Of a DNA stretch of 60,984 nucleotides, positions 32,878-47,844 are shown one piece after another. A model generated the notes under the pieces. The model saw nothing but the letters and a program-made list of their open reading frames with translations. It ran no database searches and was not told the DNA's origin. The stretch is from a virus. Lineage: Duplodnaviria > Caudoviricetes. The stretch is taken from positions 1-60,984 of the IMG/VR virus record IMGVR_UViG_3300009161_000006. One strand, 5' to 3'. The position numbers were made by a program, and so were the translations under genes. Positions within the stretch are counted from its first letter, which is position 1. Every line of letters begins with the position of its first letter.

Positions 32878-33326
32878 GGAGCAACCACATAGTTATATGC
32901 ACTTGTGCTTCCTGACATCTTAAATTCATATGTTACTATGCCACATGTTGCATCGTTGATTCTTATCTTTATTGATGAAGCAGTCTTAAAGCTAGAAAAT
33001 ATCTCGTGTGTTGTTAGATTGTCCATAAAGAATAATGTCCTGTTGTCCTCAGAAACAGAGCAATCTAATATATTATATTTTTGATATACCCCGTTAACTA
33101 AAAAAGACATGTCCACATTGACTCCCTCGTCACATATGTATACACCACCAATATAAAAAGATATTTCATTATTATAATTCTCAAGTTTTAAAAATTGATT
33201 TTCATAACCATTAGTATGTGCAATTTTATATGGAGCATCAAATCCATTATCAACTGTTTTGTATATCCATTGTGCACTTGCTGTATAGCTTAGTGCTAAT
33301 CCTATTGTCATTAATAAAGTTTTCAT
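32874..33326 (-). CDS. Secreted/periplasmic protein
   Basis: Sec signal MKTLLMTIGLALSYTASA|Q typical of Bacteroidota. Confidence 0.65.
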   Translation of the reverse strand: MKTLLMTIGLALSYTASAQWIYKTVDNGFDAPYKIAHTNGYENQFLKLENYNNEISFYIGGVYICDEGVNVDMSFLVNGVYQKYNILDCSVSEDNRTLFFMDNLTTHEIFSSFKTASSIKIRINDATCGIVTYEFKMSGSTSAYNYVVAP

Positions 33327-33464
33327 AATTTTAGTTTTTAGTTTATTTTGTTTCGTTTTGCATTGCAAATTTGTAAATATAATTGTAAGTTAAAGCTCCC
33401 CCTGAATTGGTGTTGCCACCAATCTATTCTGTCAGCGAATGACACGTTATAATTTTCCATATGC

Positions 33465-33746
33465 TTAGTTTATAAATTTTGAACTGATTAATAATACATC
33501 TCCGACAATATAATCATCGGGAAGACCTGCTAATTCTGTTGCAATAATGTTTGGCTTTAGATTGTTCATTTTGCCCTCTTCATTTACAACTAATATTACC
33601 CCGTCTTTTAAGTATACAAGCTCAACGTATCCACCTACACAGGCTTGCATTTCGCTAAGAGTTACATGAGACTCATTGAACTCCATTGTTCTTGTGGTAC
33701 CATCTGATAAAATCAATGTACCATTTGCTTTTGTGTTTTTTTCCAT
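33465..33746 (-). CDS. DUF3846-like protein
   Basis: LSEMQ..VGGYVE...VNEEGK...N..AT...IVGDV motif. Confidence 0.8.
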   Translation of the reverse strand: MEKNTKANGTLILSDGTTRTMEFNESHVTLSEMQACVGGYVELVYLKDGVILVVNEEGKMNNLKPNIIATELAGLPDDYIVGDVLLISSKFIN

Positions 33747-33795
33747 AATTTGATTAGATTAAATGTAAAGATAGTTCATTTGCACCAATAATTGT

Positions 33796-34155
33796 TCATA
33801 ACTCTGCTGTAAAATCACAACCCCCTTGTTCTTTAATGCAATCTCTTATCTCTCTACCCAATAGCAAGTCGGCATAGTTACTCAATTCTTCAGTAGTAAA
33901 GAATGGTTTAATCATCTCATCATTGTAGCCATTATTGTTCTTAAAGAACTCTACAATTACATCGTACTTAGACCCTAAACTCTCCTCTATACTTTTAATC
34001 TCATTCTCCACCTCTTCTAGATGTTCCTCTTCATTGAAGTGATAATCAATGTACTCAGGTTGGCACTTATGTCCACCAAACCTACTTGCCGCTTCACTTG
34101 ATTGCAGCGCGAACCAAAACTTACCATTGATATCGCCTGCATAATATCTGCCCAT
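33796..34155 (-). CDS. Hypothetical protein (MGRYY.GDI.GKFWF family)
   Basis: 119-aa ORF; its first codons are duplicated upstream of the HNH gene. Confidence 0.65.
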   Translation of the reverse strand: MGRYYAGDINGKFWFALQSSEAASRFGGHKCQPEYIDYHFNEEEHLEEVENEIKSIEESLGSKYDVIVEFFKNNNGYNDEMIKPFFTTEELSNYADLLLGREIRDCIKEQGGCDFTAEL

Positions 34156-34690
34156 AACTAATTGATTTTTAGATTGTTAAACTTATTTACTATATTCCCA
34201 ACTGTTCTATGGTTTGTACCATATTGTTTTGCAATTTTTCTCATTGATATTCCTTTTTTAATTAAATTATTCCACTCTTTGTAGAATTTATTATTTCCTT
34301 TATCTTTTAATCCTGTATATGGTTTATGTAAACCAATATCGTATGCGTGTTTTGTGTTTTCACTTATTGTATGCCATTCTAAATTTTCCACACGATTATC
34401 ATTTTTAATTCCGTTTATATGATTAACGGTTTCTTTACATTGTGGATTTGGTAAATATGCAATAGCTACAAGTCTATGAATAAAATAATCTTTATTACTT
34501 ATTCTAACTTTAACATACCCTTTATGTCCTGTTTTAGATTGTTTAAGTTCTGTAAGTTTATTAAACTTTCTTTTACTAAATACTTTGCCTTCTTTAGTAA
34601 TAAAATAATCTTTTTCTATTTCTACCATAACATTTGTTTGTTTGCAAAGATACAAAACAATATGGTAATTACTAATACCTTCCCATAACT
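34142..34690 (-). mobile_element. HNH cassette bounded by 18-bp imperfect direct repeats (34142-34159, 34673-34690)
   Basis: Minus strand AGTTATGGGAAGGTATTA vs AGTTATGGGCAGATATTA; internal promoter 34645-34652. Confidence 0.7.
34158..34628 (-). CDS. HNH homing endonuclease (HNH_3 type, C-terminal HTH)
   Basis: IHRLVA..YLPN...VNHING.KNDNRVENLEW...EN..HA; start reassigned to ATG 34628 downstream of TATCTTTG. Confidence 0.88.
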   Translation of the reverse strand: MVEIEKDYFITKEGKVFSKRKFNKLTELKQSKTGHKGYVKVRISNKDYFIHRLVAIAYLPNPQCKETVNHINGIKNDNRVENLEWHTISENTKHAYDIGLHKPYTGLKDKGNNKFYKEWNNLIKKGISMRKIAKQYGTNHRTVGNIVNKFNNLKIN

Positions 34691-34762
34691 TATAATTTAT
34701 TAAATTTTGCTTACTCTGTAAGGTTTTCAGCATCCCCTTTGCACTCGTGATAGAGATACTCA

Positions 34763-35674
34763 TCAAACGCCATACATAGCTATCTCCTTAGATACTTTGC
34801 CGGTGTCTATGAACATCTGAAACTTTCTGCCAAGTTTTATTATACTCTTAACCTTATCTAAGTTTCCATTATACATTATAATTAATAGTGGTGTTACTTT
34901 TTTCATAAACGCATTATGATTTCCATTTGGATTGTTCACACTATAATCTACCAACATATAAAATAACTCATACCTCCTAATCATTTGTTTAACATTCTCA
35001 AACTTAGATGGCAGTCTAAACTCAAGCACCCCCTCATTCACATCAAACTCTTTTACAAGAGCGACCTGATACTTATCATGACACCCATGCCAATCCCAAT
35101 ACTTCTCAGTAGACTCCATTCGTCTATTGTTACAGCAATATTTTGTCCGCAACCTATGTCTATATAAAGCATATATGAGCCCACTATTTTTTCTTACGGA
35201 CTCCCTCAGTTTGTCACCACTCCACCCATTGACACCTATTGTTATGTGACCACCACATGAGTCATCACTCGGACTGAAATTATCATCTATAATTTTCTCT
35301 GCCTTGTAAAACATATCGAACACTTTGTTCCTCCACATACCTCTCGGCAATAGTGGTAGTATATGCGTTACAGCCTCATATCCACATGAACTATCGTACT
35401 CAAATCCACAGAACATTTCATGCTCATGTAGCGCCTCTTCGTCTAACTCATTTTTCTCCACCTCAAATCCTATTGTAAACCTTGACTGATACCCTGCTAA
35501 TTCATCGAACTCAATGTTCTTTCTCTTTGATATCGGTAGCCCATTTATATCTGTCTGCCACTTAGTCTTGTTCAACTTTAATGGATAAGCTTTATTATGG
35601 TATCTCACAACCTCACCTCTAATACTCTGATTTGTCTTGGTGTAAATAACACCTGACTTTTCACATTCTGTCAT
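34763..35674 (-). CDS. Putative amidoligase (COOH-NH2 ligase, Amidoligase_2-like) 2
   Basis: GFEVEK, EYDSS, YEAVT, SCGGHIT, LEFRLP motifs. Confidence 0.75.
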   Translation of the reverse strand: MTECEKSGVIYTKTNQSIRGEVVRYHNKAYPLKLNKTKWQTDINGLPISKRKNIEFDELAGYQSRFTIGFEVEKNELDEEALHEHEMFCGFEYDSSCGYEAVTHILPLLPRGMWRNKVFDMFYKAEKIIDDNFSPSDDSCGGHITIGVNGWSGDKLRESVRKNSGLIYALYRHRLRTKYCCNNRRMESTEKYWDWHGCHDKYQVALVKEFDVNEGVLEFRLPSKFENVKQMIRRYELFYMLVDYSVNNPNGNHNAFMKKVTPLLIIMYNGNLDKVKSIIKLGRKFQMFIDTGKVSKEIAMYGV

Positions 35675-35694
35675 ACATTTAGATTTAATTTGAT

Positions 35695-36144
35695 TTATAA
35701 TTTACCTTCGTCTACATAAGAGTAATATCCTTTTGACGTAACGATTACATGGTCTAATAGCCTTAAGTCCATTATCTTACACGCTTCATTTAATTTTTTA
35801 GTTAAGGCATCATCTTGCTCACTTGTTTTCAAAGCACCACTTGGATGATTATGACTCAGTATTATTCCTGTTGCTCCACAATTTAATGCCGTCACTAAAA
35901 TCATTCGTACATCTATTACAGTTGAGGTTATCCCACCTTGACTAAGTTTCTGCCAACCTATTGAACGATTTGCTTGATTGAAATAAATTACTATTGAACT
36001 CTCACAATAGTCTAATGTGTCCTCATCATACATCTTCTTCAATAATTTATAGCTGTCATCAGACCCCTTAATCTGAGTCGTAACAATCCCCGATGCCTTG
36101 TACTTCAGTGTAATCTCAGGCATATCACTCTTGTATTCTTTCAT
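35695..36144 (-). CDS. RadC-like JAB/MPN domain protein
   Basis: E...HNHPSG...S..D...LLDH motif. Confidence 0.9.
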   Translation of the reverse strand: MKEYKSDMPEITLKYKASGIVTTQIKGSDDSYKLLKKMYDEDTLDYCESSIVIYFNQANRSIGWQKLSQGGITSTVIDVRMILVTALNCGATGIILSHNHPSGALKTSEQDDALTKKLNEACKIMDLRLLDHVIVTSKGYYSYVDEGKL

Positions 36145-36156
36145 AAGTCTATTGGT

Positions 36157-36414
36157 TTAAGATTTAAAATAAAGCTCACCTACACTAAAGTATCTATCTA
36201 CGCTTTGATTCTCCACTATTGTTACCATAGAGCCATTGTTCAATCCATCAATATAGTATTGAGCGAATTGGTCACTTGAATCCTTTAGTAAATCAATCAC
36301 GTTATCTTTTGGTACTCTTGTTACACCACTCATTGGCGTGTGAGTAAATGCAATTCTAATCATTGGAAATACATTTCCGATTATGTTTCTGTAATGTCCC
36401 GCTTGTGGTTTCAT
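36157..36414 (-). CDS. Hypothetical protein
   Basis: ORF between GATase and JAB genes; start reassigned to MKPQ. Confidence 0.55.
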   Translation of the reverse strand: MKPQAGHYRNIIGNVFPMIRIAFTHTPMSGVTRVPKDNVIDLLKDSSDQFAQYYIDGLNNGSMVTIVENQSVDRYFSVGELYFKS

Positions 36415-36497
36415 AAGTTTAGTTTTTAATTGTGGCGTTAACGCCACTTTTGGTTTTCGTGCGTTATGGATGCGACACCCCCCTCGTGATAGCGAGG

Positions 36498-37409
36498 TTA
36501 GAATGGGACAGTCTCACACGTAGCGCAAATCACAGCCTTCCAATCTTCATTGTACTTTGCACCCGTGTTTAAACAGCTCTCACATTCATCTTCTTTTTGT
36601 AACGCATTGTAGTGGTCTGCCTGACAATACTCACAAGTGCCAAACTCTATTTCATTCTCCTCACATAGCGTCATGCCACAGTCGTAGCAAATCTCATCGT
36701 ATATATGCTCGTCTCTTGGTATATCTTTTTGCTTTTTTGTAGCAGGTTGCGACCAAGCGTATGAAGAGCCATACGATTGACCATATACGTTTCCCGGAGT
36801 ATATCCAACGCTACTACCAAGCGACCCTCTGTAGACTTTTGTTCCACCATAGTCAACATAGTTACTGACATACTTATATGAACCATTGGAGAACCAACAG
36901 CCATTAGCCCAATGCCCTGCTTTCTCATTGACAATAGCATATTCATTATTGGTATTCAAGAATACTAATTTGCTACCACCTATGAAGCCCTCAAGCATAT
37001 CAAGTATTATCTCATTGTACTCAAATCCCTCCGTGAAATTCTTGAGCACTACCTCGTTGAACATATAGGTATCCGAATAGTCCTTACTCGTAGGGACATC
37101 GTATATCATTCCGTTATGCACAAATCCTAAGTTATCATTGACCAAGAACGGATGACAATTTGTTTCATCAATCTTTCCGTGAGTACTGATTCGAAAATGT
37201 ATTACTATGTTTCGCTTACCATAACTCTTTTTTACCCTACTATATTCCTGATAGAACACCTCAAAGCTCTTCAACTCCTTGAATGTTTTCATTTGTTTTT
37301 TGTTGTCGATATATAACAAACCGGCACCATCGCCATTGTTATCCCAACAGTTTTTTAGTAGCTCTCTCTTAAGAGTAGCTTCTTTCTTATTCAAAATTGC
37401 TATACACAT
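36498..37409 (-). CDS. Class II (Ntn) glutamine amidotransferase with C-terminal Zn-ribbon repeats
   Basis: N-terminal M-C, N.DGAG, HFRISTHG, CHPF, HNG, SDT, WFSN; four CxxC pairs at C-terminus. Confidence 0.88.
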   Translation of the reverse strand: MCIAILNKKEATLKRELLKNCWDNNGDGAGLLYIDNKKQMKTFKELKSFEVFYQEYSRVKKSYGKRNIVIHFRISTHGKIDETNCHPFLVNDNLGFVHNGMIYDVPTSKDYSDTYMFNEVVLKNFTEGFEYNEIILDMLEGFIGGSKLVFLNTNNEYAIVNEKAGHWANGCWFSNGSYKYVSNYVDYGGTKVYRGSLGSSVGYTPGNVYGQSYGSSYAWSQPATKKQKDIPRDEHIYDEICYDCGMTLCEENEIEFGTCEYCQADHYNALQKEDECESCLNTGAKYNEDWKAVICATCETVPF

Positions 37410-37435
37410 ATTTATTAGATTAAATTATTAATTAA

Positions 37436-38644
37436 TTACGCTCCTACTTCATCATTATTTATTGAGTTACTCAACCCATCACTTTTAATTTTGCTTACAT
37501 CAATATTGTCAAGCACCTTGTTATTATACATCTTAGAGTATTGTATGAATTTATTAACCTTAGTTAGCAACTGCGATTGAGTATAAATTAACCTCAAGTG
37601 CTTGTATAACTTAGACCTCTGATTGACAATCATCTTGAGTACATCAACCTCCGAAGCATTGATATTGGTCATTATTATCCTCATTAAGTCACGTCTCCAA
37701 AGTAAATTTTTGATAGATTTTACAGAGGAAGGTAGCCTTATCTCCACCCTATTATTCTTGATATAAAAAGATGAGTATTTATCTCTCGTATAGAAGTACT
37801 CTTGCTTCTTCTTAGCTTTAGAGTATGTCTTATCGAGCCTATTCTCATACATTGAATAGAGCAGTGGTATAAACCCACTCATGCCCTCAAATAATTCATC
37901 AGGTGAATACTTAGTTGATGACACATTTATATGACCCCCACAATTTTCAGATGACTTGGCATTAATTAAGGTCATTAAGTCGGGGTCTTTTATATCATTG
38001 TCCATATCATTAGTGAACAAGTCAAAGGTCGGACTGACCAACTCATAGCCAATACAGCTATCTAATGACCCGTCATTCTCCTTGCCCCAACCTGTTCTAT
38101 CGTACACATCTCTATAGTATATTCCACAGGCATCGCCATCTTCCTTCTCCACCTCGAAGCCAACCCTCCAAACTGTTTTCTCAGTGGACTTGTCCCTTCG
38201 TGATAGCGATTGATAACTTGCATTATTTTCCGATTGGTCATCATCATCATCCGACTCATAATTTGAATCATAGTACTCATCTCGTCTGTCTGACCAATAG
38301 ATGCCATGGTCATTTGCTACGTCGCTGTCGGCATAAACTTCACCCCTACATTCTATTGATTCATCTCTGCAGAAGTATCCCTGAGCTCTTCTTGATACGT
38401 ATCCATATTGGCATCTATGGTTCTCTGTATCTATCCACTCATCATGATACTCTGAGTATGCTATGCTCTCATTACCTTCAATAAATGTACTGCCAAAATA
38501 TTCAGTATGCACATCATCATTTAGACACCATTCGTTCTCCATATCGGTCAAGGTACAGTCTGATTTCAACTCCCAAGTCCCATCGTGTAGTTCTACACAT
38601 AATTCTGCGGGGTGTACGTCCCCATTGCTTACCATTATATTCAT
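37436..38644 (-). CDS. Putative amidoligase (Amidoligase_2-like) 1 with acidic, aromatic N-terminal region
   Basis: GFEVEK, ENDGSL, YELVSP, CGGHIN, VEIRLP motifs. Confidence 0.8.
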   Translation of the reverse strand: MNIMVSNGDVHPAELCVELHDGTWELKSDCTLTDMENEWCLNDDVHTEYFGSTFIEGNESIAYSEYHDEWIDTENHRCQYGYVSRRAQGYFCRDESIECRGEVYADSDVANDHGIYWSDRRDEYYDSNYESDDDDDQSENNASYQSLSRRDKSTEKTVWRVGFEVEKEDGDACGIYYRDVYDRTGWGKENDGSLDSCIGYELVSPTFDLFTNDMDNDIKDPDLMTLINAKSSENCGGHINVSSTKYSPDELFEGMSGFIPLLYSMYENRLDKTYSKAKKKQEYFYTRDKYSSFYIKNNRVEIRLPSSVKSIKNLLWRRDLMRIIMTNINASEVDVLKMIVNQRSKLYKHLRLIYTQSQLLTKVNKFIQYSKMYNNKVLDNIDVSKIKSDGLSNSINNDEVGA

Positions 38645-38688
38645 AATAAATTTAATTTAATTGTTGCCTACTCTATTAGGTTTTCAGC

Positions 38689-39165
38689 TTACCCTTTATT
38701 GATTAAAAAATATCTTGGCTGATGAAAATCATCAAATCCATAGTCTTGCATTGAAATTATTGTTGTCCAACCTGCCTTCATAATTTCGTAGTGAGTTTGA
38801 CTTCTGCCTTCTCCTTCCGACCACGCTCCCAAAGTATACCAATCCTTATCGAAGAACTCTTCTATCTCTTGTTCTGATAGTTCTTCTTTAAATCTGTAGG
38901 TGGTTTTCCCATCAATTACATTGTAAATTTCGTTGCCTGATGCGTCTTCAAAAGAAAGTACACAATCATTGAAATCAATTTCATCAAAAGTGTAATAGGT
39001 ATATGTTGTTCCTTCACAACAAGGGCAACCACTTTCTATTGAAACATATTCTATACCTTCGTTTATTTCATCACAATTTCTTGCTATGATACATATGTGT
39101 TTATTTTCAATTCTCACATTATTGTCATGATAAATCATAAGCCACGACGTTATTTTTTCTTCCAT
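38689..39165 (-). CDS. Hypothetical acidic early protein
   Basis: 158-aa ORF with CPCC motif. Confidence 0.6.
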   Translation of the reverse strand: MEEKITSWLMIYHDNNVRIENKHICIIARNCDEINEGIEYVSIESGCPCCEGTTYTYYTFDEIDFNDCVLSFEDASGNEIYNVIDGKTTYRFKEELSEQEIEEFFDKDWYTLGAWSEGEGRSQTHYEIMKAGWTTIISMQDYGFDDFHQPRYFLINKG

Positions 39166-39495
39166 ACGTTCTAATTTTTAATTATTAATAGTAACCTCGA
39201 GGTTACTTTTGATTTATACTATTTTATTCATTGTAGTCATCGTAAATAGTAATCCTATACTTATTCAAAATAAGTGGTGCTTGTGCATTTTTCATAAGTT
39301 CCATTAATTCCTCTATAGTATTGATTTCTATTATCAATTCTTCTTCATCATATTCATTTAGTTCAGTTCTTACAATAAACTTAGAAGCTTCTTTGTAATA
39401 AGCCTTTGCAGTACCCCACGATGCACATTTTAACATAAATTCCATACTTTCTAATTTTTAATTATTAATAGTGGTTTCAAAACCACATTTGATTT
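39160..39495. repeat. 56-bp direct repeat (39160-39215, 39440-39495) with different central 16-bp palindromes
   Basis: TTCCATAC.TTCTAATTTTTAATTATTAATA-[GTAACCTCGAGGTTAC or GTGGTTTCAAAACCAC]-.TTTGATTT. Confidence 0.9.
39224..39445 (-). CDS. Hypothetical protein
   Basis: IEINTIEEL...ITIYDDY.E motif. Confidence 0.6.
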   Translation of the reverse strand: MEFMLKCASWGTAKAYYKEASKFIVRTELNEYDEEELIIEINTIEELMELMKNAQAPLILNKYRITIYDDYNE

Positions 39496-39739
39496 CAATT
39501 GTTACTTCATCCATTGCGCCCTCGAGTGACAGTGAGTCCAAATCAGCGAACCGACTCGCACAATAGCCCTGCCATCGAAGACCGTTCTTTGTAGTCCCCT
39601 TGTTATTCACACCGGAGATGATGAACGTCCTCTGCTCGAATCCATTGATGAACTCATCAAGGACATAATACTCTCTACCATTCACGACCTTTGCCCCTTC
39701 AGGTAACTTCTTATCATTGATACACGTTACCTTTCTCAT
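39458..39739 (-). CDS. Hypothetical protein (KVTCIND, SH3-like start)
   Basis: 93-aa ORF. Confidence 0.6.
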   Translation of the reverse strand: MRKVTCINDKKLPEGAKVVNGREYYVLDEFINGFEQRTFIISGVNNKGTTKNGLRWQGYCASRFADLDSLSLEGAMDEVTIEIKCGFETTINN

Positions 39740-39945
39740 CTTATATTTAGATTACTAAATATCCATTCTTCATCAAAGCGAAGCAGGTCATTTAGTTGTG
39801 TCTCACTAATCCCATTCTCGAATAGCTCTTCGATTAATGAAACGAAATCATCTTCCTTGCCCTCACTTATTATTCTGTCTTTGGTTTCTTCTGCACCACC
39901 CCACGCATCAAATTGTCTTAAGTTAATCTCGCTTGTTACTCTCAT
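39736..39945 (-). CDS. Hypothetical protein
   Basis: FDAWGGA...ETQLND.L.F motif. Confidence 0.6.
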   Translation of the reverse strand: MRVTSEINLRQFDAWGGAEETKDRIISEGKEDDFVSLIEELFENGISETQLNDLLRFDEEWIFSNLNIR

Positions 39946-39957
39946 AATTTCTGTTTT

Positions 39958-40158
39958 TTATTGGTTTATATGTTCTATTAAAAATAATTTTCTAGTCCAT
40001 TCCTCATCCTGCATTATAACATCAAGGAACATTTCACCCGTCTCTTCGTCTAAATAGACTTCATAATGAACTATACCGAAATCATCTGACCACAGGTCGA
40101 TAATAAATGATGTAGTTAGTGCGCCCATTGGTAACTCTTCTAATACTTTATACTTCAT
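39958..40158 (-). CDS. Hypothetical acidic protein
   Basis: 66-aa ORF with A-rich leader. Confidence 0.55.
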   Translation of the reverse strand: MKYKVLEELPMGALTTSFIIDLWSDDFGIVHYEVYLDEETGEMFLDVIMQDEEWTRKLFLIEHINQ

Positions 40159-40170
40159 AAGTTCTATTTT

Positions 40171-40323
40171 TTAGTAGGTATAAATTTCTTCTTCTTCGCA
40201 TACTTGACTATTAATCTCAATAAGATATAACATCTCCATACACTCATCATAAGACCCTCTCATGATTGTTCCGAATTGGTCATCAATTAGACACCAATCG
40301 TTTGTTGATTTGATTACTTCCAT
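40171..40323 (-). CDS. Hypothetical 50-aa protein (MEVIKSTNDW...), not in ORF track
   Basis: Manual translation; fills the gap with stop/start overlap. Confidence 0.5.
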   Translation of the reverse strand: MEVIKSTNDWCLIDDQFGTIMRGSYDECMEMLYLIEINSQVCEEEEIYTY

Positions 40324-40499
40324 TACTTTGCAGTTTTTTGTTGATTGTGAATACTATTTACCTGTCCGTATGCGTCACATTCTACATACTTTCGCCCATT
40401 ATTGCAACTCGTTAACACAACTAATAACACAATCGCTATTAGCATTGCTATTTTTATGCAGAACAACTGCACATAAATGTTCTTTGATAATCTTTTCAT
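40323..40499 (-). CDS. Small putative lipoprotein (58 aa), not in ORF track
   Basis: MKRLSKN...LIAIVLLVVLTS-C-NNGRKYVECDAYG lipobox-like. Confidence 0.55.
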   Translation of the reverse strand: MKRLSKNIYVQLFCIKIAMLIAIVLLVVLTSCNNGRKYVECDAYGQVNSIHNQQKTAK

Positions 40500-40886
40500 T
40501 TCTTTTAGTTTTTAGTTGTTGGTTTATATTATATTATAGTAGTGACTTAAGTATTCTTTAGCCATATATCTAACATCTCGGATACTATATCCTTGATTAT
40601 CTATTGCATTTCCATTCCTATAAACTGATTGTGTAGATGTCTTTGGATAAATAGCCATTCTATAAATATGGTTGAAGCATTTACTATTTGTCACCCCATA
40701 AATAAGAATTATGTTTATATCATCGTACTCTACAGAGTGATTTATAAACTCTTTCACATCGGAGTTATAATCCAATATACTTTTACGCTCAATTTCAACC
40801 TGTGCCAAAAAGGTTCCTGCTAGCATTTCATCCCATCTCATTTCTAATTCGCTTTCTGATTTCATTTCTTTTAGTTTTTAATTGTT
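40494..40886. repeat. 27-bp direct repeat of leader plus start (40494-40520, 40860-40886)
   Basis: Minus strand AACAA(C/T)TAAAAACTAAAAGAAATGAAA, one mismatch. Confidence 0.85.
40524..40865 (-). CDS. Hypothetical protein
   Basis: 113-aa ORF between leader repeats. Confidence 0.55.
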   Translation of the reverse strand: MKSESELEMRWDEMLAGTFLAQVEIERKSILDYNSDVKEFINHSVEYDDINIILIYGVTNSKCFNHIYRMAIYPKTSTQSVYRNGNAIDNQGYSIRDVRYMAKEYLSHYYNII

Positions 40887-41160
40887 ATTATTTTGAATTT
40901 ATTTTTATTGTGACTCCCTTGAGCCACCAATTGATTGCGCTTATAATAGCATAGCGCCATACTATAAAAGTAATAGGTCTCACATATAGAGCCATTTACA
41001 TATTGTAGTTGGTAGGTCATTATGGTTTAGTTTTTAAGTTATTGTATACATACACAATCATAAATAATGATAAAATCATTAAGCAAACACCAATACACGT
41101 TGTTACATTTTCCATTTCATTTAATTATTAAATTATAAATACTATTTTTTTAAGTTGAAC

Positions 41161-41178
41161 TGTGGTTTTGAAACCACA
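41161..41178. promoter_or_regulatory. Palindromic site TGTGGTTT(TG/CA)AAACCACA; copies at 39471-39487, 41161-41178, 41571-41588, 42074-42091
   Basis: Four near-identical 16-18 bp palindromes within 2.7 kb. Confidence 0.75.
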
Positions 41179-41320
41179 ATCGATTTCATTCTCATTGGGG
41201 CGCACGTCCCCTGTGACAGTGAGAGCATTCATCTCCACCCTCGCACCCTTAATTTGTTTGTACGTATTAATTTACCTTCAAAGAAGAAGCCCCAAATTTC
41301 ATAGAGCCCCTCAATTCTAA

Positions 41321-41548
41321 TTATTCGGCTTTCCATAAGTTCCATTTATTAGATTGGTTTATACTATAGCGTTCATTAAATTGCGCTTGCGTCACTTCCC
41401 ATATCTCCACATTCTCATTAAAAGCCACTTCCACCACGAACTCATGGTTTTCGGGGTTATTAACATTATCCTCCCAAGCAGTTTGTGAGAGTGAATTGCA
41501 CCCTGCACAAAGTGACAGGACTAAAAATATTTTTATTGTTCGTTTCAT
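41321..41548 (-). CDS. Putative lipoprotein
   Basis: MKRTIKIFLVLSLCAG-C lipobox. Confidence 0.65.
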   Translation of the reverse strand: MKRTIKIFLVLSLCAGCNSLSQTAWEDNVNNPENHEFVVEVAFNENVEIWEVTQAQFNERYSINQSNKWNLWKAE

Positions 41549-41612
41549 TTTTTTTTTATTAAAGTAAAAATGTGGTTTTGAAACCACACTATAAAAAATA
41601 TTCGTATACGCA

Positions 41613-41639
41613 AAAGCACCCTGTAAAACAGGGCGCTTT
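41613..41639 (-). terminator. Terminator after first early gene
   Basis: AAAGCACCCTG-TAAAA-CAGGGCGCTTT stem, U run on minus strand. Confidence 0.65.
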
Positions 41640-41662
41640 AATTATTCGTTTGTTCGTTTGTT

Positions 41663-42199
41663 TTACCCTTCTATCATGGTATCCATTTTGCGTTTAAGCA
41701 ATACAATAACTGCTTGAATTTGCGCCTTTGTTAGTGTACTTGTCAATTCGTCCTTATCGTTAATTGATAATTTTGACTCACCGAAAGTTAATTTTAGCTT
41801 AAATTCTTCCTTTTCTTTCGTTGGCGTATCGGTAGCGAATTTCAAAAAGTCCTGCACATTGTAGGAATCCCGAACTGAAGCTAAATAAGCGCCTTGCTTA
41901 TCGGCAAATTTATTTGCCTTAATTAATCGGTAACACCACGACTTTTCTTGAAATCCCAAGTATAAAAAGAAATCTTCCATTGTCCATTCAACGTCTGCGA
42001 CCTTGAAAAACTGTTTACATTCTTTAGTTTTGAAGTATTCAGCGCTTTCACTTACTAATTTCGCAAGACACATTGTGGTTTCAAAACCACACTTAAAACC
42101 TTGCGTTACGGCTGAATTAAGTTCGCTAATTTCTTGAGCGTTAATTCCTTTTCTTGCATTGTTCACTGCTTTGCTTTCATTCGTTGTTAATGTTTTCAT
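41663..42199 (-). CDS. First early gene, hypothetical (possibly DNA binding)
   Basis: Downstream of - strand promoter 42260-42267; contains one palindrome copy. Confidence 0.65.
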   Translation of the reverse strand: MKTLTTNESKAVNNARKGINAQEISELNSAVTQGFKCGFETTMCLAKLVSESAEYFKTKECKQFFKVADVEWTMEDFFLYLGFQEKSWCYRLIKANKFADKQGAYLASVRDSYNVQDFLKFATDTPTKEKEEFKLKLTFGESKLSINDKDELTSTLTKAQIQAVIVLLKRKMDTMIEG

Positions 42200-42482
42200 A
42201 ATAAATAAAATTAAGTAATAAATAAAATTGTTTGATGTTCAATACCTTATCGAACACAACAAAGATAGTACAATAATCGGATATAGAAAGTATAAAACTA
42301 AAATAATTTACTTTTTTTATTTGCCTATGTCCTGAAAGCCCCGCCACCACTACGTTTCAGGGTTAAAAAAAGTTTTGTTCCGTATGTTATGTTAGTGGTT
42401 TTGATAGGATAGGCAGGGCTTAAACCCTTACTGCTACTACGTTTCAGCGCTTTTAGTGTGCTTGTCCCTTGCTATATTGAAT

Positions 42483-42610
42483 CGTGTGTGCGTGTGCGTG
42501 GCTAGTATGTACGGGTGTGTGTGCGTGTGCGTGTGTGCGTGTGCGTGGGTGCATACGTGGGCGTATGTGCGTGTGCGTTACGTGTGTGCGTGTGTGTGCG
42601 TGTACGCATG
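42483..42610. repeat. Alternating purine-pyrimidine low-complexity tract (GTGT/GCGT)
   Basis: ~128 bp of (GY)n-like sequence in an AT-rich genome, at the divergent strand switch. Confidence 0.9.
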
Positions 42611-42776
42611 GGAAAAAGCCAAAAAAACGAGCAATGACGGGGCTTTCAGCACCCCACTGCCCTAAAAAAATGTCGTTTCCGTGCGTGGACCGGCGACGCC
42701 ATACCATACCATCATCCAACTACTACTATTATCTAATAAAATTTTATACCTTTGTAACTCACTAAAACAAAAGATT

Positions 42777-43025
42777 ATGTACGGAAAAAATTTAGGTAGT
42801 ATTTACGGAATAATGGACGATGGACTAACTGTAAAGGACGGTAGATTGATTAACAATAGACCAAATGGGAAGAACGGAATTGAGAAAGCTTGTGAGTTAA
42901 AGAAGGCTATAAAAAAGGCTGAGAAGATTAGTATGATATCTGAAGGAGTTGCTTTAGGGGATATGAAAGCAGAGATGAGAGAGGAGGGAATGGGTATGAT
43001 TATGCCATTTAAGTTTAAAAGATAA
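42777..43025 (+). CDS. Hypothetical protein (MYGKNLG...DGRLINNRP)
   Basis: ATG 42777 downstream of TACCTTTG (42747). Confidence 0.6.
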   Translation: MYGKNLGSIYGIMDDGLTVKDGRLINNRPNGKNGIEKACELKKAIKKAEKISMISEGVALGDMKAEMREEGMGMIMPFKFKR

Positions 43026-43029
43026 CAAT

Positions 43030-43205
43030 CGACACTACTTTGTGTTGATTTTAGTGTCGTTTTTATTTTTGTAACTAACTGATTATTAATACTTTATTCT
43101 TTTAATGTCGATTATGTCGATTTTAAAGAGAAAATAGAATGAGATAAAACTATATATAGTAATAATATATATATATATATATAGGGAAAAATTAAATTGA
43201 CATTA
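43030..43205. promoter_or_regulatory. Origin-like region B: RTGTCGATT repeats plus (TA)n tract
   Basis: CGACACTA/TAGTGTCG inverted pair, tandem ATGTCGATT at 43105 and 43114, long TA run; same layout as 27739-27870. Confidence 0.45.
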
Positions 43206-43288
43206 AGGTTTTAATATAAAAAAAAATAAATTTCTATTATATTATAAATTGGTATATCTTTGCGTCAATAATTTAATCAAATATAAAT

Positions 43289-44899
43289 ATGATAGATAGT
43301 GCAGGGTATTCACCCAAGAACTTACATTTCGGCGAAGAGGGCCGAAAGAAACTAATCAAAGGAGTAACAACAATGTCTAATGCTGTGAAGAGCACATTAG
43401 GACCGGGCGGTAATACTGTTTTAATAGAGTCGGTAAATCACTTACGTGGTATAACTGTAACTAAGGATGGTGTAACTGTTGCTCGTTCTATAGATTTGTT
43501 AGACCCTGTTGAGAATTTAGCGGTACGTATGATGAAGGAGGCTGCGGACCAAACTGCAACGAGTGCAGGAGACGGTACGACTACGGCTATTGTATTAACG
43601 GAGTCATTGGTATTGGGTGGATTGGAGTTAATAACTATTGACCACAACAGAACGGAGGTTTTGCGACAGCTATCGGAGATAACTAATAAGGTGGTGGAGA
43701 GATTGCGAGATAAGTCTACTGATGTAACGGATGATATGATAGTTGACGTTGCTACTATATCTGCGAACAATGACAGGAGTATAGGAACGATAATAGCTGA
43801 GGTATATGGTGACGTTGGTAAGACGGGCATGGTAACGGTTGAGCGTTCACAGACATCTGACACATATTCAGAGACGACAACGGGTATTAAGGTAGACAGG
43901 GGGTATAGTTCGCCATTATTCATTAATGACCAAAAGCGAGACGAGTGTATATTTGAGGACACCATGATATTGGTAGCTGACGTAGACATAAATAATATCT
44001 TACAGATAGAGAACATATTAAAGCCAATTATAAATGAGGGCAAGAAATTATTAATTATAGCTCCGTGTAATGCGAATGTGGTGAACACATTGGCGGCAAA
44101 TGTAATGAAGGGTAATTTGAAGGTATGTGTAGTAGCTCCTCCAAATTTTGGATATAAGCAACATGAATTAATGCAAGACATCGCCATAAGTGTTGGAGCT
44201 ACTTATTTTAGTGAGGGTACGGGTGATGATTTGAGTCATATTACTTATGATGATTTGGGTCATGCTGCCAAGGTTATAATCGGAAGGGAGAAGACTGTTA
44301 TATTAAAGTCAAGTGAAAACATAAACCAATCCGACATTGACGAGAGGGTAAAGCAATTGCGAGATGCTCATACACTTGCAAAGCGGAAAGATGACAAAGA
44401 CTTTATTATTGAGCGCATAGCGTCATTAACGGGTGGTATAGGTGTAATATTTGTTGGTGGCAATACTGACTTGGAGCAGAAGGAGTTGTATGACAGGGTT
44501 GATGATGCTGTGTGTGCTGTTCGTTCTGCATTAGAGGAGGGTATATTAGCAGGAGCAGGTAAGGCTTTGTATGAGATTAGCTTCGATGATTTTTTTGATG
44601 GCAAGTTGAGTAAGGAGCAAGAGGTAGCGTGTATTATTTTAAGGGAAGCCTTAAGGTCTCCATTGGTTCAGATATTAAATAACGCAGGGTTATTCGTTGA
44701 GAAGATTTACAGTGGTGATATTGCAGATGGCCATGGTTACAACTTAAAGACATCTGAGATGGGTGACTTGATTGAGATGGGTGTCATTGACCCACTAAAA
44801 GTTACTCGTAGTGCATTACAGAACGCAGTTAGTGTAGCTACTACAATACTAAGCACAAATGCCATTATTACAATGGCACGAACATATGAGTCACAATAA
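43289..44899 (+). CDS. groEL: Phage-encoded chaperonin GroEL
   Basis: TLGP.G..V, TKDGVTVA, AGDGTTTA, DRGY.SP.F, GVIDP.KV.R.AL.NA; lacks the GGM tail. Confidence 0.96.
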   Translation: MIDSAGYSPKNLHFGEEGRKKLIKGVTTMSNAVKSTLGPGGNTVLIESVNHLRGITVTKDGVTVARSIDLLDPVENLAVRMMKEAADQTATSAGDGTTTAIVLTESLVLGGLELITIDHNRTEVLRQLSEITNKVVERLRDKSTDVTDDMIVDVATISANNDRSIGTIIAEVYGDVGKTGMVTVERSQTSDTYSETTTGIKVDRGYSSPLFINDQKRDECIFEDTMILVADVDINNILQIENILKPIINEGKKLLIIAPCNANVVNTLAANVMKGNLKVCVVAPPNFGYKQHELMQDIAISVGATYFSEGTGDDLSHITYDDLGHAAKVIIGREKTVILKSSENINQSDIDERVKQLRDAHTLAKRKDDKDFIIERIASLTGGIGVIFVGGNTDLEQKELYDRVDDAVCAVRSALEEGILAGAGKALYEISFDDFFDGKLSKEQEVACIILREALRSPLVQILNNAGLFVEKIYSGDIADGHGYNLKTSEMGDLIEMGVIDPLKVTRSALQNAVSVATTILSTNAIITMARTYESQ

Positions 44900-45374
44900 G
44901 TGTAAGAAATGTGGAAAAGATTTTATTCCTGAAAAGGGATTAGTAAGTCATTGTAGCTTATTTTGCAGGAACTCAAGGCCTTGTACTGAAGAAACAAAGT
45001 CTTTAAAGAGTAATGTGATAAAAAAAAATTGGGCTGATGGAGTGTATGCAAATACTGATTGGAGCAAAGTAAATAGTAATCCTGATAAGATAAAAAATCA
45101 AATTGAGACATGGGAGAAAAAGATAAATGATAGGTTATTAAATGGTGAGCCTTTGCATGTACAAACAGTAAGAAAAATATTAAGAAAAAGGCGCGGTGAT
45201 TTTTGTTATATATGTGGTCTATCAGATTGGTTAGGGAATAAAATATCTCTTGAGACTCATCACATTGATGGCAATAATAAAAACAATACTATAAATAACT
45301 TACAAATACTTTGTCCAAACTGTCATTCACAAACTAATAATTATAGAGGTAAAAACATAAAACAAAAAAAATGA
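44886..45374 (+). CDS. HNH endonuclease with N-terminal Zn finger
   Basis: CKKC..HCSLFC; CYICG...LETHHIDGN..NN..NNLQILCPNCHSQT. Confidence 0.88.
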   Translation: MSHNKCKKCGKDFIPEKGLVSHCSLFCRNSRPCTEETKSLKSNVIKKNWADGVYANTDWSKVNSNPDKIKNQIETWEKKINDRLLNGEPLHVQTVRKILRKRRGDFCYICGLSDWLGNKISLETHHIDGNNKNNTINNLQILCPNCHSQTNNYRGKNIKQKK

Positions 45375-46107
45375 AACCAATCGGGAAATACAAAAAAAGT
45401 TGTATATTTGTAATATGGAAAATAATAAGGTTGTATATCTACACAGAAAAAAAACAGACAATTCTGTATTTTATGTAGGTATGGGGAATATGAAAAGAGC
45501 CTATTCTAAACAAAGGTCTGTATGGTGGAATAAAATAGTTGATAAATATGGATATATAATTGAAATATATAAAGACGGATTAATTAAAGAAGATGCTTTT
45601 AAAATAGAAATAAATCTTATTGAGAAATATGGTAGAATAGATTTGAAAAATGGTCAGCTTATTAATCAAACAATCGGTGGGATTACCGTAGAAGGATTAT
45701 GTAATAAAGTTTTAAATAAAAAAAGTAAATCTTTAAAGGCCGTAGTAAGAAATAAAGAATGGAATAATAAAATATCTAATTCTTTAAAAGGTAAGGCTAA
45801 AACAAATATCCATAAAGAAAATTTATCTAAAGCAAATCTAGGTAAAAAACATACAGAAGAAACTAAAGAAAAAATGAGATTATCTAATAAATCAAAAACA
45901 ATAACAGCAAAGGCAATATCTTGTTATGATTATTATTCAAATGAGATTCTTTTTAATTTTGATTCTATTAGAAATGCAGCAAAAGAATTAGGTTGTAAAG
46001 AAACTTCTATATGTAATAATTTATCTAATAGAAGTCGTAGTATTAACAGTAAAACATTAAATAAAAAAATAAAATGCATAAAAATTTAAAACCAATCGGG
46101 AAATACA
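45374..46107 (+). mobile_element. Endonuclease cassette bounded by perfect 19-bp direct repeats AAACCAATCGGGAAATACA (45374-45392, 46089-46107)
   Basis: Repeat equals groES codons KPIGKY; orphan ATG at 45371. Confidence 0.8.
45415..46089 (+). CDS. GIY-YIG-like homing endonuclease with NUMOD3 and NUMOD1-like DNA-binding modules
   Basis: VYLHR...FYVGMG..KRA, E..LI..YGR, GKKHTEETKEKM, FDSIRNAAKEL. Confidence 0.82.
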   Translation: MENNKVVYLHRKKTDNSVFYVGMGNMKRAYSKQRSVWWNKIVDKYGYIIEIYKDGLIKEDAFKIEINLIEKYGRIDLKNGQLINQTIGGITVEGLCNKVLNKKSKSLKAVVRNKEWNNKISNSLKGKAKTNIHKENLSKANLGKKHTEETKEKMRLSNKSKTITAKAISCYDYYSNEILFNFDSIRNAAKELGCKETSICNNLSNRSRSINSKTLNKKIKCIKI

Positions 46108-46343
46108 TTATTGTAAAAAATATTGACGAAGAGATTAAGACTGAGTCGGGATTAATTTTATCGGGGGAAGACGCAAGTCAGTTAAGATATAAACGTGCGA
46201 CTGTTCAGTGTTCAGGCACTGATGTGGCTAACATAAAAGAGGGCGATGAGATATATTACGACAAGGGTCGTAGTTTCACGATGATAATCAATGACATTCA
46301 GTGCACCATAATTGTAGAGGGGGACGTAGTGGTGGTCTTATAG
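46074..46343 (+). CDS. groES: Co-chaperonin GroES
   Basis: KPIGKYIIV...KTESGLIL...V..IKEGD.I.Y...DV motif; next to groEL. Confidence 0.9.
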   Translation: MHKNLKPIGKYIIVKNIDEEIKTESGLILSGEDASQLRYKRATVQCSGTDVANIKEGDEIYYDKGRSFTMIINDIQCTIIVEGDVVVVL

Positions 46344-46781
46344 TTCGTTAACGGTCCTTTTCTTACCTTTAAAAGTCTTATTCATTTCCATTATCATATT
46401 CCTATAGACTTTGTCGGTGTACTTGACATTTTTATTAAACATTGTATTGCTTTTACCCATAGGTATTTCGTTACCGCTTAGTAGGTTGTAGATTAATTTA
46501 ATTAGGCAGCTTGTTTTGTAAGGCAGGGTATATACTGCTCTACTTCCTTTGAATCCTCTACGGAACAAAACTATCCATCCATCTCTTAGCAATTGGTCAA
46601 ACCTAGTCACGTTCCAACTCATAAGTGAGTCAAACTCTTTAAACTTATCTTTATCAAAGTAGTGTTCTGAATTCAAGAACAGTATCATATCAAGGTCTGC
46701 TTGGGTCAAACCATACCTTTCTTTAACATAATATCTTATTACTCTCCAATACTTAAGATAATCATCAGTTATTTTTCTCAT
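46338..46781 (-). CDS. Winged-helix (MarR-like) regulator
   Basis: YGLTQADLDM.LFL...LL.DGWI; lone - strand gene in the late region. Confidence 0.5.
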   Translation of the reverse strand: MRKITDDYLKYWRVIRYYVKERYGLTQADLDMILFLNSEHYFDKDKFKEFDSLMSWNVTRFDQLLRDGWIVLFRRGFKGSRAVYTLPYKTSCLIKLIYNLLSGNEIPMGKSNTMFNKNVKYTDKVYRNMIMEMNKTFKGKKRTVNEL

Positions 46782-46848
46782 TTTATTTTATTTGATTTAA
46801 TTTTATTACTTTTGTAAAGATAAATCAATTATTTAAAAAATAAAAGTT

Positions 46849-47190
46849 ATGTTAACTCCTAGAAATAAAAGAGTAAAAAAAGAAACAGTTATAGATACTT
46901 TTACGCCACAAAAACTAACGGCTACAGAAACTAAAACAGTTTTTAGACGTGATGGGGTTACACCTAGAAAAACTATAGCTAAAGATTACACAAACACTTA
47001 TGATGACAAAGGATATATGGCTAAGAGAAGTGATATAACACAGGTTGTAAAAACAAAATACGATAAAAAGGGAGAGTGGACAAAACAACATATAAAAGGA
47101 TATATACCAAAAGATGAATATAAGCTATCTAAAATAAGACCAAATGGAGATACGCCATTATCAGACTCTCCAACAGTTAACCCTAAATAA
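46849..47190 (+). CDS. Basic hypothetical protein
   Basis: Downstream of TACTTTTG (46807). Confidence 0.55.
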   Translation: MLTPRNKRVKKETVIDTFTPQKLTATETKTVFRRDGVTPRKTIAKDYTNTYDDKGYMAKRSDITQVVKTKYDKKGEWTKQHIKGYIPKDEYKLSKIRPNGDTPLSDSPTVNPK

Positions 47191-47220
47191 TTAATAATTA
47201 ATAGCTAAAAACTAAAAACT

Positions 47221-47844
47221 ATGTACTCACAACAAGAAAAAGATAAAATGGCGATGAAGAACGCCACTATTGATAAGTTCGCTGCAAGAGGCGGCGGCGA
47301 AGATACGGGCGGCGGAAGCGATACAGGCGGCGGCGGCGGAGGCGATAGAACTAATCGTGGTGATAGAATGGCAGCAAGAGGACAAAGAAAAATAGGTAGT
47401 GGAGTAGAAAAAATAAGTGGTGATAGAATGGCAGCAAGAGGACAAAGAAAAATAGATAAGGGAGAAGAAAAAATAGTTAGGGCTACAGAAAAATTAGGTG
47501 ATAAATTAATAAACAAATCCGATAGGGCAGAAATTAAATTAGGAAGAATCGAAAAAAGAGCGGGTGAATTTCCTACATTAGGTCAATCTGAACGAATATC
47601 AGCTCAAACATCAAAAGCTAATAAAGCATTTGAAGATAGAGTGGCATTTTTGGAGACTCCTAAATATCGTACTATGAATTCAAGCCGTATGCCTACTCAA
47701 CCCGCCGGGCCATTCGACAAATCTGATGTCAATTTAACAAGTAAAAAGCAAGCAAAAGGCTTGGAAAAAATAAATAAAGGCGAAAGATTAGTGAAAAAAG
47801 GAACAATGCTTTCGGCTAAAATTAATAATAGAAGAAAAGGATAA
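47221..47844 (+). CDS. Basic Gly-rich protein with internal repeat
   Basis: Exact 39-bp repeat 47357-47395 / 47417-47455 (GDRMAARGQRKI). Confidence 0.6.
   Translation: MYSQQEKDKMAMKNATIDKFAARGGGEDTGGGSDTGGGGGGDRTNRGDRMAARGQRKIGSGVEKISGDRMAARGQRKIDKGEEKIVRATEKLGDKLINKSDRAEIKLGRIEKRAGEFPTLGQSERISAQTSKANKAFEDRVAFLETPKYRTMNSSRMPTQPAGPFDKSDVNLTSKKQAKGLEKINKGERLVKKGTMLSAKINNRRKG

Follow-up and report, generated by a model that had tools for sequence, protein, structure and literature searches.

Start-codon direct repeats as probable edges of optional single-gene units in a freshwater phage genome

Our understanding of how single accessory genes come and go in phage genomes without integrases is incomplete. 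In integrons, cassettes are single promoter-less genes bounded by attC hairpins, which are conserved in structure and variable in sequence. In the Aeromonas phage Aeh1, insertion of the endonuclease gene mobE splits nrdA and creates new starts and stops. One-sided illegitimate break repair, in which the other junction forms at microhomology, is known from T4 intron homing (PMC2988022). The model of integrase-free cassette exchange by PeSL (promoter-early stem-loop) motifs rests on T4-like phages, in which the motifs end at a start codon, recombine with each other and give rise to mini-circles (PMC2839356). Here we analyse the IMG/VR virus record IMGVR_UViG_3300009161_000006 (Caudoviricetes), in which single-gene units located between positions 33,796 and 46,107 are bounded by direct repeats that overlap translation starts. 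The window is the whole stretch of DNA analysed, that is, all 60,984 bases of the record.

The repeats probably mark the edges of optional single-gene units. These units are of two kinds, homing endonuclease genes and cassettes of small open reading frames (ORFs), that share one geometry, and recombination between leaders together with homing would account for them. A direct-repeat search over positions 33000-47500 returned all four repeat pairs listed by the first-pass annotation of this DNA, each overlapping a translation start. The HNH pair lies at 34142/34673 (repeat family D8; 34 bases, 76% identity, with a core identical at 16 of 18 positions), the unit-2 pair at 39160/39440 (D5; 56 bases, 80%), the unit-3 pair at 40494/40860 (D14; 27 bases, 96%) and the GIY-YIG (hereafter GIY) pair at 45365/46080 (D13; 28 bases, 89%, including 19 identical bases from 45374/46089). 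The longest identical runs are 21 bases in units 2 and 3, 19 in the GIY pair and 9 in the HNH pair. Start codons within the repeats are ATG 34155 and a relic ATG at 34686 (HNH), ATG 39165 and 39445 (unit 2), and ATG 40499 and 40865 (unit 3), while the GIY repeats overlap a relic ATG at 45371 and cpn10 codons at 46089. The geometry is as originally described: in each unit, one gene can be removed while the next gene keeps its leader and start.

The four repeat pairs are not due to chance. With up to 3 mismatches allowed, each of the 21-base cores of the unit-2 and unit-3 pairs has exactly two copies genome-wide, whereas shuffles lead one to expect 0.05 and 0.06. Leaders (positions -30 to +9) of 82 called genes were compared in 3,321 pairs, 77 of which are adjacent on one strand. 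The leader pairs of units 2 and 3, both adjacent, rank first and second of all (32/39 and 30/39 identical positions; mean 16.4, standard deviation 3.4). Across 218 loci, with near-identity set at a minimum of 25 matching positions out of 30, 7 of 2,786 adjacent leader pairs qualified, compared with 5 of 5,034 pairs at distance 2-3 and 2 of 23,307 pairs further apart. Near-identical leader pairs are therefore rare but strongly tied to adjacency, and near-identity of leaders is a property of neighbouring genes.

The genome has direct terminal repeats, is rated 100% complete and was assembled from a freshwater metagenome. A DNA-level search of a phage collection returned no match to it, and the closest GroEL in that collection, from an uncultured Caudoviricetes record, shows 61% protein identity. 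A related GroEL is encoded in 384 IMG/VR stretches, and 80 of these were retained for comparison (L001-L080); L-numbers denote related loci throughout. In addition, contigs from the metagenome runs X2, X3, X4 and X8 were aligned to positions 33000-47000. X2 and X3 are the runs nearest the source, X4 is from sediment (2019) and X8 from lake water (2025). Single X2 and X3 contigs (X2 record 1; X3 records 12 and 15) bridge the HNH unit, unit 3 and the GIY unit, with both repeats and 0-3 differences; no piece listed bridges the second repeat of unit 2. It is scarcely credible that the repeats are accidents of AT-rich DNA or chimeric assembly joins. The 34% G+C content, the fact that short two-copy families often arise by chance and the metagenomic origin of the record would favour such a reading, whereas the low expectation for the 21-base cores, the bridging of three units by contigs of other runs and the presence of the same architecture in independent genomes speak against it.

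Presence, absence and replacement polymorphisms of single genes have their edges in the repeats. X4 and X8 contigs, which are ~96-98% identical to the genome, lack units yet keep one repeat copy. In both runs, the HNH-less allele passes from 34131 to 34681, skipping 549 bases with 18 diverged letters at the joint; read with its flanks, the joint forms one start, MGRYYNGD. The GIY-less allele, also found in both, passes from 45377 to 46093 (715 bases skipped), and 15 letters fit both sides; X4 has a GIY-bearing contig as well. Unit 2 is missing from an X4 contig (record 19) that passes from 39193 to 39474, skipping 280 bases, and X8 has ~250 different bases in this slot, with a copy of the same leader on either side. 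A unit-3-less allele occurs only in X4 (40513 to 40908, 394 bases skipped), where 22 letters at the joint resemble the flank of copy 2. A fifth cassette, absent from the first-pass list, is missing from an X8 contig that passes from 39953 to 40167 (213 bases skipped, 7 letters fitting both sides). Joints of the small-ORF units, at 39193/39474, 39207/39488, 39953/40167 and 40513/40908, all fall in the motifs. The empty sites with one repeat copy that had been predicted were thus found for all four units, weakly so for unit 3, and in contigs and relatives the breakpoints lie in or at the repeats. The opposite outcome, named beforehand as speaking against the idea, was not observed.

Small-ORF cassettes cluster in a hypervariable region (~38.6-42.2 kb), in which the close relatives L002, L004 and L214-L218 carry different sets of small ORFs. 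The features of this region are as follows.

38640-39215, minus strand: 158-residue gene (38689-39165) with both flanking leaders, a block exchanged between lineages
39160-39215, minus strand: unit-2 composite repeat, copy 1, consisting of 8 shared bases, hairpin, leader and the ATGGAA of the 158-residue gene
39190-39207, minus strand: hairpin AGTAACC-TCGA-GGTTACT of unit-2 copy 1
39224-39445, minus strand: 73-residue ORF cassette, unit 2
39440-39495, minus strand: unit-2 composite repeat, copy 2, read through as the C-terminus of a 93-residue ORF
39470-39487, minus strand: hairpin TGTGGTT-TTGA-AACCACT of unit-2 copy 2
39943-40174, minus strand: fifth cassette, ORF 39958-40158, with 19-base leader repeats at 39943 and 40156 (family D4)
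40494-40520, minus strand: unit-3 leader repeat, copy 1 (leader and ATGAAA of ORF 40323-40499)
40524-40865, minus strand: 113-residue ORF cassette, unit 3
40860-40886, minus strand: unit-3 leader repeat, copy 2

Leaders are common to unrelated genes and to different lineages. Over the block at 38640-39215, identity to L214-L218 is 93-96%; the flanks are either ~72% identical or unrelated. The drops lie at ~39189 and at 38644, where the next gene has its ATG. The 158-residue block is a recent exchange between lineages, with both edges at leaders. The two copies of the unit-2 repeat share 8 identical bases before the hairpin and 31 of 32 bases after it, through ATGGAA. The hairpins themselves are equally well paired and differ in sequence, one (TGTGGTT) being the usual type of this genome and the other (AGTAACC) foreign; the arrangement is therefore not a simple duplication. 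The 93-residue gene (39458-39739), which lies in the hypervariable region here, is found between the RadC-like gene and the 119-residue gene in L134 (3724-3942) and L135 (3272-3520), and is a moved cassette.

Similar arrangements were found in relatives. For instance, a distant homologue of the unit-2 ORF lies between perfect 21-base repeats in L138, and a 22-residue ORF lies between leader repeats in L218. L135 carries a 141-residue zinc-ribbon ORF at the start of its 119-residue gene, with a perfect 32-base duplication that includes 8 coding bases. In L215, an extra gene, called AIG2-like from a reading of its translation only, sits between two DUF805b leaders where this genome has one. The box and hairpin of composite leaders are also translated as the tail or inner part of small ORFs (e.g., ...SLS..S....NEP.SALECT) in L004 (1127-1340), L002 (3969-4171), L215 (3008-3257) and L218 (1642-1884); cassette joints would therefore create chimeric ORF ends. 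Within 41229-41352, a leader-like word with an ATG (a D4 copy at 41334) leads into a frame of only 35 codons where ORF 41321-41548 ends, and may represent either a relic leader or a gene of very small size.

The first endonuclease unit is found at the start of a conserved gene encoding 119 residues.

34158-34640, minus strand: free-standing HNH homing endonuclease gene, 160 residues from ATG 34640, with a TATCTTTG box upstream
34673-34690, minus strand: relic of the start of the 119-residue gene (leader end, ATG and 4 codons, then a stop), left of the HNH gene
34142-34159, minus strand: working leader end and start of the 119-residue gene, second repeat copy
33796-34155, minus strand: 119-residue conserved target gene (MGRYY.GDINGKFWF), found in 39 relatives
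34708-34740, minus strand: DUF805b RNA motif (RF02914) ahead of the relic start, 39.3 bits (gathering threshold 35.6)

The HNH protein matches Pfam HNH_3 (PF13392; E 1.1e-8, 35 bits against a cut-off of 24.8) and PHROG 59 (E 5e-40), and the stop codon of its gene sits in the working leader of the 119-residue gene. The HNH gene had no match in the 39 loci that hold the 119-residue gene. Among 41 HNH relatives, two are 82% identical; these genes, in L173 and L174, occupy the same place ahead of homologues of the 119-residue gene and share the relic (ATG and four codons, then a stop), the TATCTTTG box and the 3' end running into the working leader. The relic is thus present in all three genomes that have this HNH gene. 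For the relic with its leader, the match is the native start of the close relative L134; for the working leader, it is the leader of the distant L046, which occurs there without an HNH gene. Along the 119-residue gene, the first ~200 bases are nearer to L046 and L138 and the last ~150 bases nearer to L134 and L135, at identities of only 0.6-0.8, and the gene looks mosaic. These affinities would fit acquisition of the HNH gene through break repair in which one crossover fell within the target gene and the left junction in or at the relic.

The second endonuclease unit lies between groEL and cpn10.

44886-45374, plus strand: HNH2, a second HNH endonuclease gene (Pfam HNH, E 1e-4; also PHROGs), between the groEL stop and the relic cpn10 ATG
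45371-45392, plus strand: relic of the cpn10 start (ATG and 6 codons), the ATG overlapping the HNH2 stop
45415-46089, plus strand: putative GIY-YIG-fold homing endonuclease gene with a NUMOD-type C-terminal part and a TATATTTG box upstream
46074-46343, plus strand: cpn10 (GroES-like) gene, whose new ATG lies within the 3' end of the endonuclease gene (Pfam Cpn10, E 1.8e-9)
46089-46107, plus strand: second copy of the GIY repeat

Codons 2-7 of cpn10 are repeated behind the new ATG, within the 3' end of the endonuclease gene. The product of this gene does not match the Pfam GIY-YIG family (PF01541); it matches PHROG 314 (E 3e-16). In 37 aligned sequences, Y8, Y20, G22 and E65 are invariant and R28 and N84 are at least 90% conserved; we take these residues to be equivalent to those of I-TevI. 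The AlphaFold2 (AF2) model has a predicted local distance difference test score (pLDDT) of 86.8. In a fold search with this model, ranks 1-16 were mostly GIY-YIG domains (I-TevI, UvrC), with E values of only 2e-3 to 0.18, and the I-TevI structures 1ln0 and 1mk0 were matched with a target TM (template modelling) score of 0.59-0.60 and a probability of 0.98-0.99. Searched against the PDB by sequence alone, the protein had no match, and by profile only weak GIY-YIG matches (E 0.14-0.89). The invariant residues and the modelled fold support the presence of a GIY-YIG domain, so that the label given in the first-pass annotation holds on these grounds but not by the Pfam family.

In all 79 genomes showing both genes (78 of the 80 loci, and this genome), groEL precedes cpn10; in L036 and L057, no cpn10 was seen. 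As an insertion hot spot, the stretch separating them ranges from 5 to ~3,560 bases and varies in content. In L009 and L010, the groEL stop and the cpn10 ATG are one base apart, and in L001-L008 HNH2 is followed by a single cpn10 start. HNH2 itself starts within the final codons of groEL and ends in a stop codon that overlaps the relic ATG; it is missing from L009 and L010 and present at 55-58% identity in L001-L008. Wherever the GIY gene stands beside cpn10 (this genome, L076, L219 and L220), the relic is present (4/4). The endonucleases of these three relatives are 65-71% identical, and upstream of the relic the four genomes show four different contexts, namely, HNH2, a small ORF, groEL itself and another gene. 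More distant GIY relatives (36% identity) occur in L049 and L050. A second cpn10 start was detected in 2 of the 68 genomes with a gap of at least 60 bases (this genome and L076), where 0 of 200 shuffles scored as well. The query for this search was off register for L001-L008 and L079; three rows from these loci, with 15 of 21 matches equalled by 3-6 of 200 shuffles, were taken as chance.

Duplication of the cpn10 start occurs only with the GIY gene, and HNH2 has no flanking repeat, so the duplication belongs to the GIY gene and not to the site in general. The suggestion that homing endonucleases exploit the leader mechanism therefore stands only in part: the endonuclease units share the geometry, but homing explains them better. 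As possible carriers of the endonuclease genes, group I introns were rejected; no intron family was found with Rfam, either in 33000-47000 or in the whole genome.

The repeats, above all those of the endonuclease units, might instead be scars of insertion, target duplications left by template switching or one-sided break repair at microhomology and without later function. T4 introns provide a documented case of such one-sided illegitimate repair (PMC2988022), the HNH relic and its working copy come from different lineages, the target gene appears mosaic, and L135 has a perfect 32-base duplication. This explanation is possible but rather improbable. The relics are kept in three and four genomes, the endonucleases of which are only 65-82% identical and stand beside different upstream genes, and such retention fits a kept role, or repeated crossing-over within the relic, better than a neutral scar. 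Moreover, the unit-2 copies have different hairpins and are not a duplication of one target.

Many small genes are preceded by a composite leader. From 5' to 3', it consists of a box (TCRCTMTCAC), ~35 bases, an 18-base hairpin (AGT-N4-TYRA-N4-ACT), a leader starting with ATTAATAATTAA and the ATG. The element was found here and in L002, L004, L215, L217 and L218, and the folding energies of its hairpins are -6.5 to -10.8 kcal/mol (z -2.1 to -4.0). Further hairpins and a second DUF805b motif are listed below.

36431-36448, minus strand: hairpin AGTGGCG-TTAA-CGCCACA with an upstream box, ahead of ORF 36157-36414
38665-38697, minus strand: DUF805b motif in the leader of the 402-residue gene (RF02914; 42.7 bits against a gathering threshold of 35.6)
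41161-41178, minus strand: TGTGGTT-type hairpin with a CTCACTGTCAC box upstream
41571-41588, minus strand: TGTGGTT-type hairpin followed by a T run
42074-42091, minus strand: TGTGGTT-type hairpin inside the 178-residue gene (41663-42199), codons 37-42

X4 and X8 contigs skip from 36160 to 36454, with short sides of 26 bases. Copies similar to the DUF805b motif occur in L002, L134, L135 and L215, and in the full-text literature the name turned up only on an unrelated subject. The DUF805b motif and the TAnnTTTG boxes, which we take to be the Bacteroidota promoter consensus, lead us to infer that the host is a member of Bacteroidota. Scans for sigma-70 promoters (68 sites against 58.6 expected) and for terminators were uninformative; no sigma-70 promoter was evident, the promoter type of the host lies outside the models of the scan, and of the hairpins only that at 41571 is followed by a sense-strand T run.

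Within any one genome the hairpin stems are alike, but they vary from genome to genome (TGTGGTT, AGTGCAC, AGTATAC, AGTCTGT and AGTACGG). Because pairing was a selection criterion for the wider hairpin lists, part of their covariation is built in. An unbiased check via the flanking motif ATTAATAA was noisy, with a hairpin at 7 of 61 sites and five stem types. The copy within the 178-residue gene follows the intergenic type of its genome (L002, L004, L010, L215 and L218), and 21 distant orthologues have KKKFEQT at this place and no hairpin. The simplest reading is that the uniform stems reflect concerted evolution by conversion among copies. In an integron-like alternative, the hairpins would be the sites of an unrecognised hairpin-specific recombinase or nuclease, possibly the 178-residue protein. 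Stem uniformity, the behaviour of the copy in the 178-residue gene and the two joints that flank a hairpin are in keeping with this idea, which is nevertheless very improbable: no integrase, resolvase or Y1 transposase was found in the complete genome, the repeats of units 3 and 5 and of both endonuclease units have no hairpin, and the 178-residue protein has no Pfam, PHROG, PDB-sequence or fold match (model pLDDT 87.5).

It is also unlikely, though less so, that the repeats are regulatory or start motifs only, and that random illegitimate recombination supplies the variation while selection keeps the events at gene boundaries. Leader types do recur before non-adjacent genes and in relatives, two leaders are the curated RNA motif DUF805b, the hairpins fold stably, and HNH2 and most groEL-cpn10 inserts have no repeat. 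However, motifs alone would not place the top two of 3,321 leader pairs at adjacent genes, nor account for an adjacency enrichment that is ~29-fold across the family. Moreover, repeats reach into the first codons, as in the perfect 32-base repeat of L135 with its 8 coding bases, the joints have 7-15 letters fitting both sides, and the edges of exchanged blocks are sharp at leaders.

Enzymes that could carry out the exchanges are encoded in the genome, as had been noted in the first-pass annotation.

28336-29076, minus strand: PDDEXK-like nuclease (DUF3799), E 1e-20
29078-29725, minus strand: Sak annealase (SSAP_Sak), E 3e-51

The tyrosine recombinase family PF00589 had no match in the genome, while controls matched in 14 of 14 cases. 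The view that cassette exchange proceeds without an integrase agrees with this result, as neither a tyrosine nor a serine recombinase turned up in this genome, which is rated complete. Rad52-like recombinases can work with homology that is short and diverged, and the minimal pairing segment quoted for Red-beta is 23-27 bp; Sak is not among the four recombinases tested in that study (PMC3945230).

Together, these data suggest the following mechanism. In the hypervariable region, and at some leaders elsewhere, each small gene has a composite leader in front of it, made up of a box, a hairpin or DUF805b motif, an AT-rich leader, and the ATG with a codon or two. Leaders are the only sequence common to unrelated neighbours and to co-infecting relatives; recombination between two of them, within a genome or between such relatives, would therefore insert, delete or swap one gene and leave the next start intact. 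The recombining enzymes may be the Sak annealase and the PDDEXK nuclease of the phage itself. The endonucleases would cut alleles free of their genes, which would be copied in by double-strand-break repair. Each endonuclease gene sits within the first codons of a conserved gene, with a dead relic of the target start on its left and a working start, supplied or kept, on its right. The relic would be the scar of one-sided repair or else, where the upstream gene is a different one, the sole homology on the left side.

Several observations weigh against recombination at leaders and homing as the source of the units. Near-identical adjacent leaders are rare across the family (the 7 of 2,786 given above). 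The leader word TAAAAACTAAA, related to the repeat cores, also precedes non-adjacent genes, and leader motifs occur before further non-adjacent genes (e.g., 47221, 47864, 32874 and 36157); part of the similarity is therefore that of a shared functional motif. The identical runs of 9-21 bases are at or below the Red-beta pairing segment. In 66 of the 68 genomes with a groEL-cpn10 gap of at least 60 bases, there is no second cpn10 start, and the HNH2 junctions have no flanking repeat. The unit-3 homologue of L004 and L215 has other neighbours and no flanking repeat, and the unit-3 empty allele is a single contig with a 26-base short side and is weak. Contigs of X2 and X3 show no joints at these sites. 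The run comparison covers assembled contigs only, which hide rare variants, and the gene calls used for the leader comparison were crude (ATG-only and greedy). Finally, over its first nine codons, the HNH-less allele differs from both genome copies at many synonymous positions, so it is neither a deletion product nor a recombinant of the present arrangement; we speculate that it might be a cleavage-resistant target.

Although these points narrow the case, leader recombination combined with homing remains the probable explanation. A tentative extension, which may be correct but more probably is not, would give the relic a function: as a portable copy of the target start, it would serve as a left homology arm and make homing independent of the upstream gene. 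In the same proposal, active conversion directed by hairpins would keep the genome-specific hairpins uniform, among them the copy in the 178-residue gene, and both processes together would form an integrase-free, start-codon-anchored cassette system in a large family of freshwater phages.

The same geometry is thus seen in unrelated, abundant freshwater phages of ~60 kb, with different motifs and a different recombinase family. Natural empty, filled and replaced alleles make the cassette model testable beyond T4. Duplication of the target start would place an endonuclease gene inside a coding region at no cost to the target gene, and perhaps allows it to move between genomes that differ in their upstream genes. 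For annotation, such repeats flag optional genes, as well as relic starts that should not be called as genes.

Other genes of the region contribute less. A RadC-like protein gene lies at 35695-36144 and the GroEL gene at 43289-44899. The 402-residue protein has only distant relatives, at up to 46% identity, and is of little use for locating breakpoints. The 303-residue protein has a single distant related locus. The 158-residue protein has no related locus in viral contigs and five from a metagenome scan. X8 contigs leave 41406-42339 uncovered, and joints with short sides occur inside groEL (43416-44765). A GT-rich block of imperfect repeats (42483-42612; units like CGTGTGTGCGTGTG) lies between divergently oriented genes, and contigs of the other runs seem to break there. 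Tandem repeats of 59-60 bases and GGCGGCGG runs at 47280-47500 lie inside ORF 47221-47844 (repeat families D2, D10 and D20).

As regards known systems, the arrangement most resembles the PeSL cassettes (Arbiol et al. 2010, PMC2839356; Comeau et al. 2014, PMC4122927). Shared features are a composite stem-loop intergenic motif ending at the ribosome-binding site and start codon, motifs that flank orphan ORFs in hyperplastic regions, indel and replacement crossovers within the motifs in close relatives, and no dedicated integrase. PeSL motifs also contain a strong early promoter. The idea of leaders as landing pads for cassettes holds here as a pattern and is already in print for T4-like phages (PMC2839356). 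The present phage differs in having a 61-kb genome, in encoding Sak and PDDEXK proteins instead of the T4 recombination system and in not being a T4-like myovirus. No sigma-70 promoter is evident, the hairpin stems are genome-specific, some of the leaders are DUF805b motifs, and some repeats extend into the first codons. Since phage group, motifs and recombinase differ, it is not PeSL in the narrow sense. Like integron cassettes, a comparison that PMC2839356 also mentions, the units are single genes with structure-conserved, sequence-variable hairpins at their bounds. In contrast to integrons, no integrase was found, most repeats are leaders rather than hairpins, and there is no single array behind a common promoter.

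The endonuclease units resemble the free-standing homing endonucleases of T-even phages (seg and mob), GIY-YIG and HNH genes that stand beside conserved genes and vary in presence among relatives (PMC2988022). T-even endonuclease genes spread with co-conversion of their flanks, of which the mosaic 119-residue gene is suggestive here, and have promoter-like boxes of their own, as do the genes described here. In contrast to seg and mob, the endonuclease gene lies inside the first codons of its target, the target start is duplicated, and the working start is located at the 3' end of the endonuclease gene. No description of such a placement was found; the words "duplication" and "direct repeat" do not appear in the T4 review (PMC2988022), and a full-text search returned only work that, judged by title and abstract, concerns another subject, which is not proof of novelty. 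One-sided repair as known from T4 would explain a recipient relic beside donor sequence; its products are experimental, whereas the present arrangement is conserved in several natural genomes. As with mobE and nrdA, an endonuclease gene lies within a coding region and the target is kept functional by new translation signals. Here, however, the target stays in one piece with its opening codons duplicated, and the complete protein would start at the new ATG. By family, the endonuclease genes are ordinary free-standing ones; what is unusual is their placement inside the first codons of the target, with a conserved relic and a re-supplied start.

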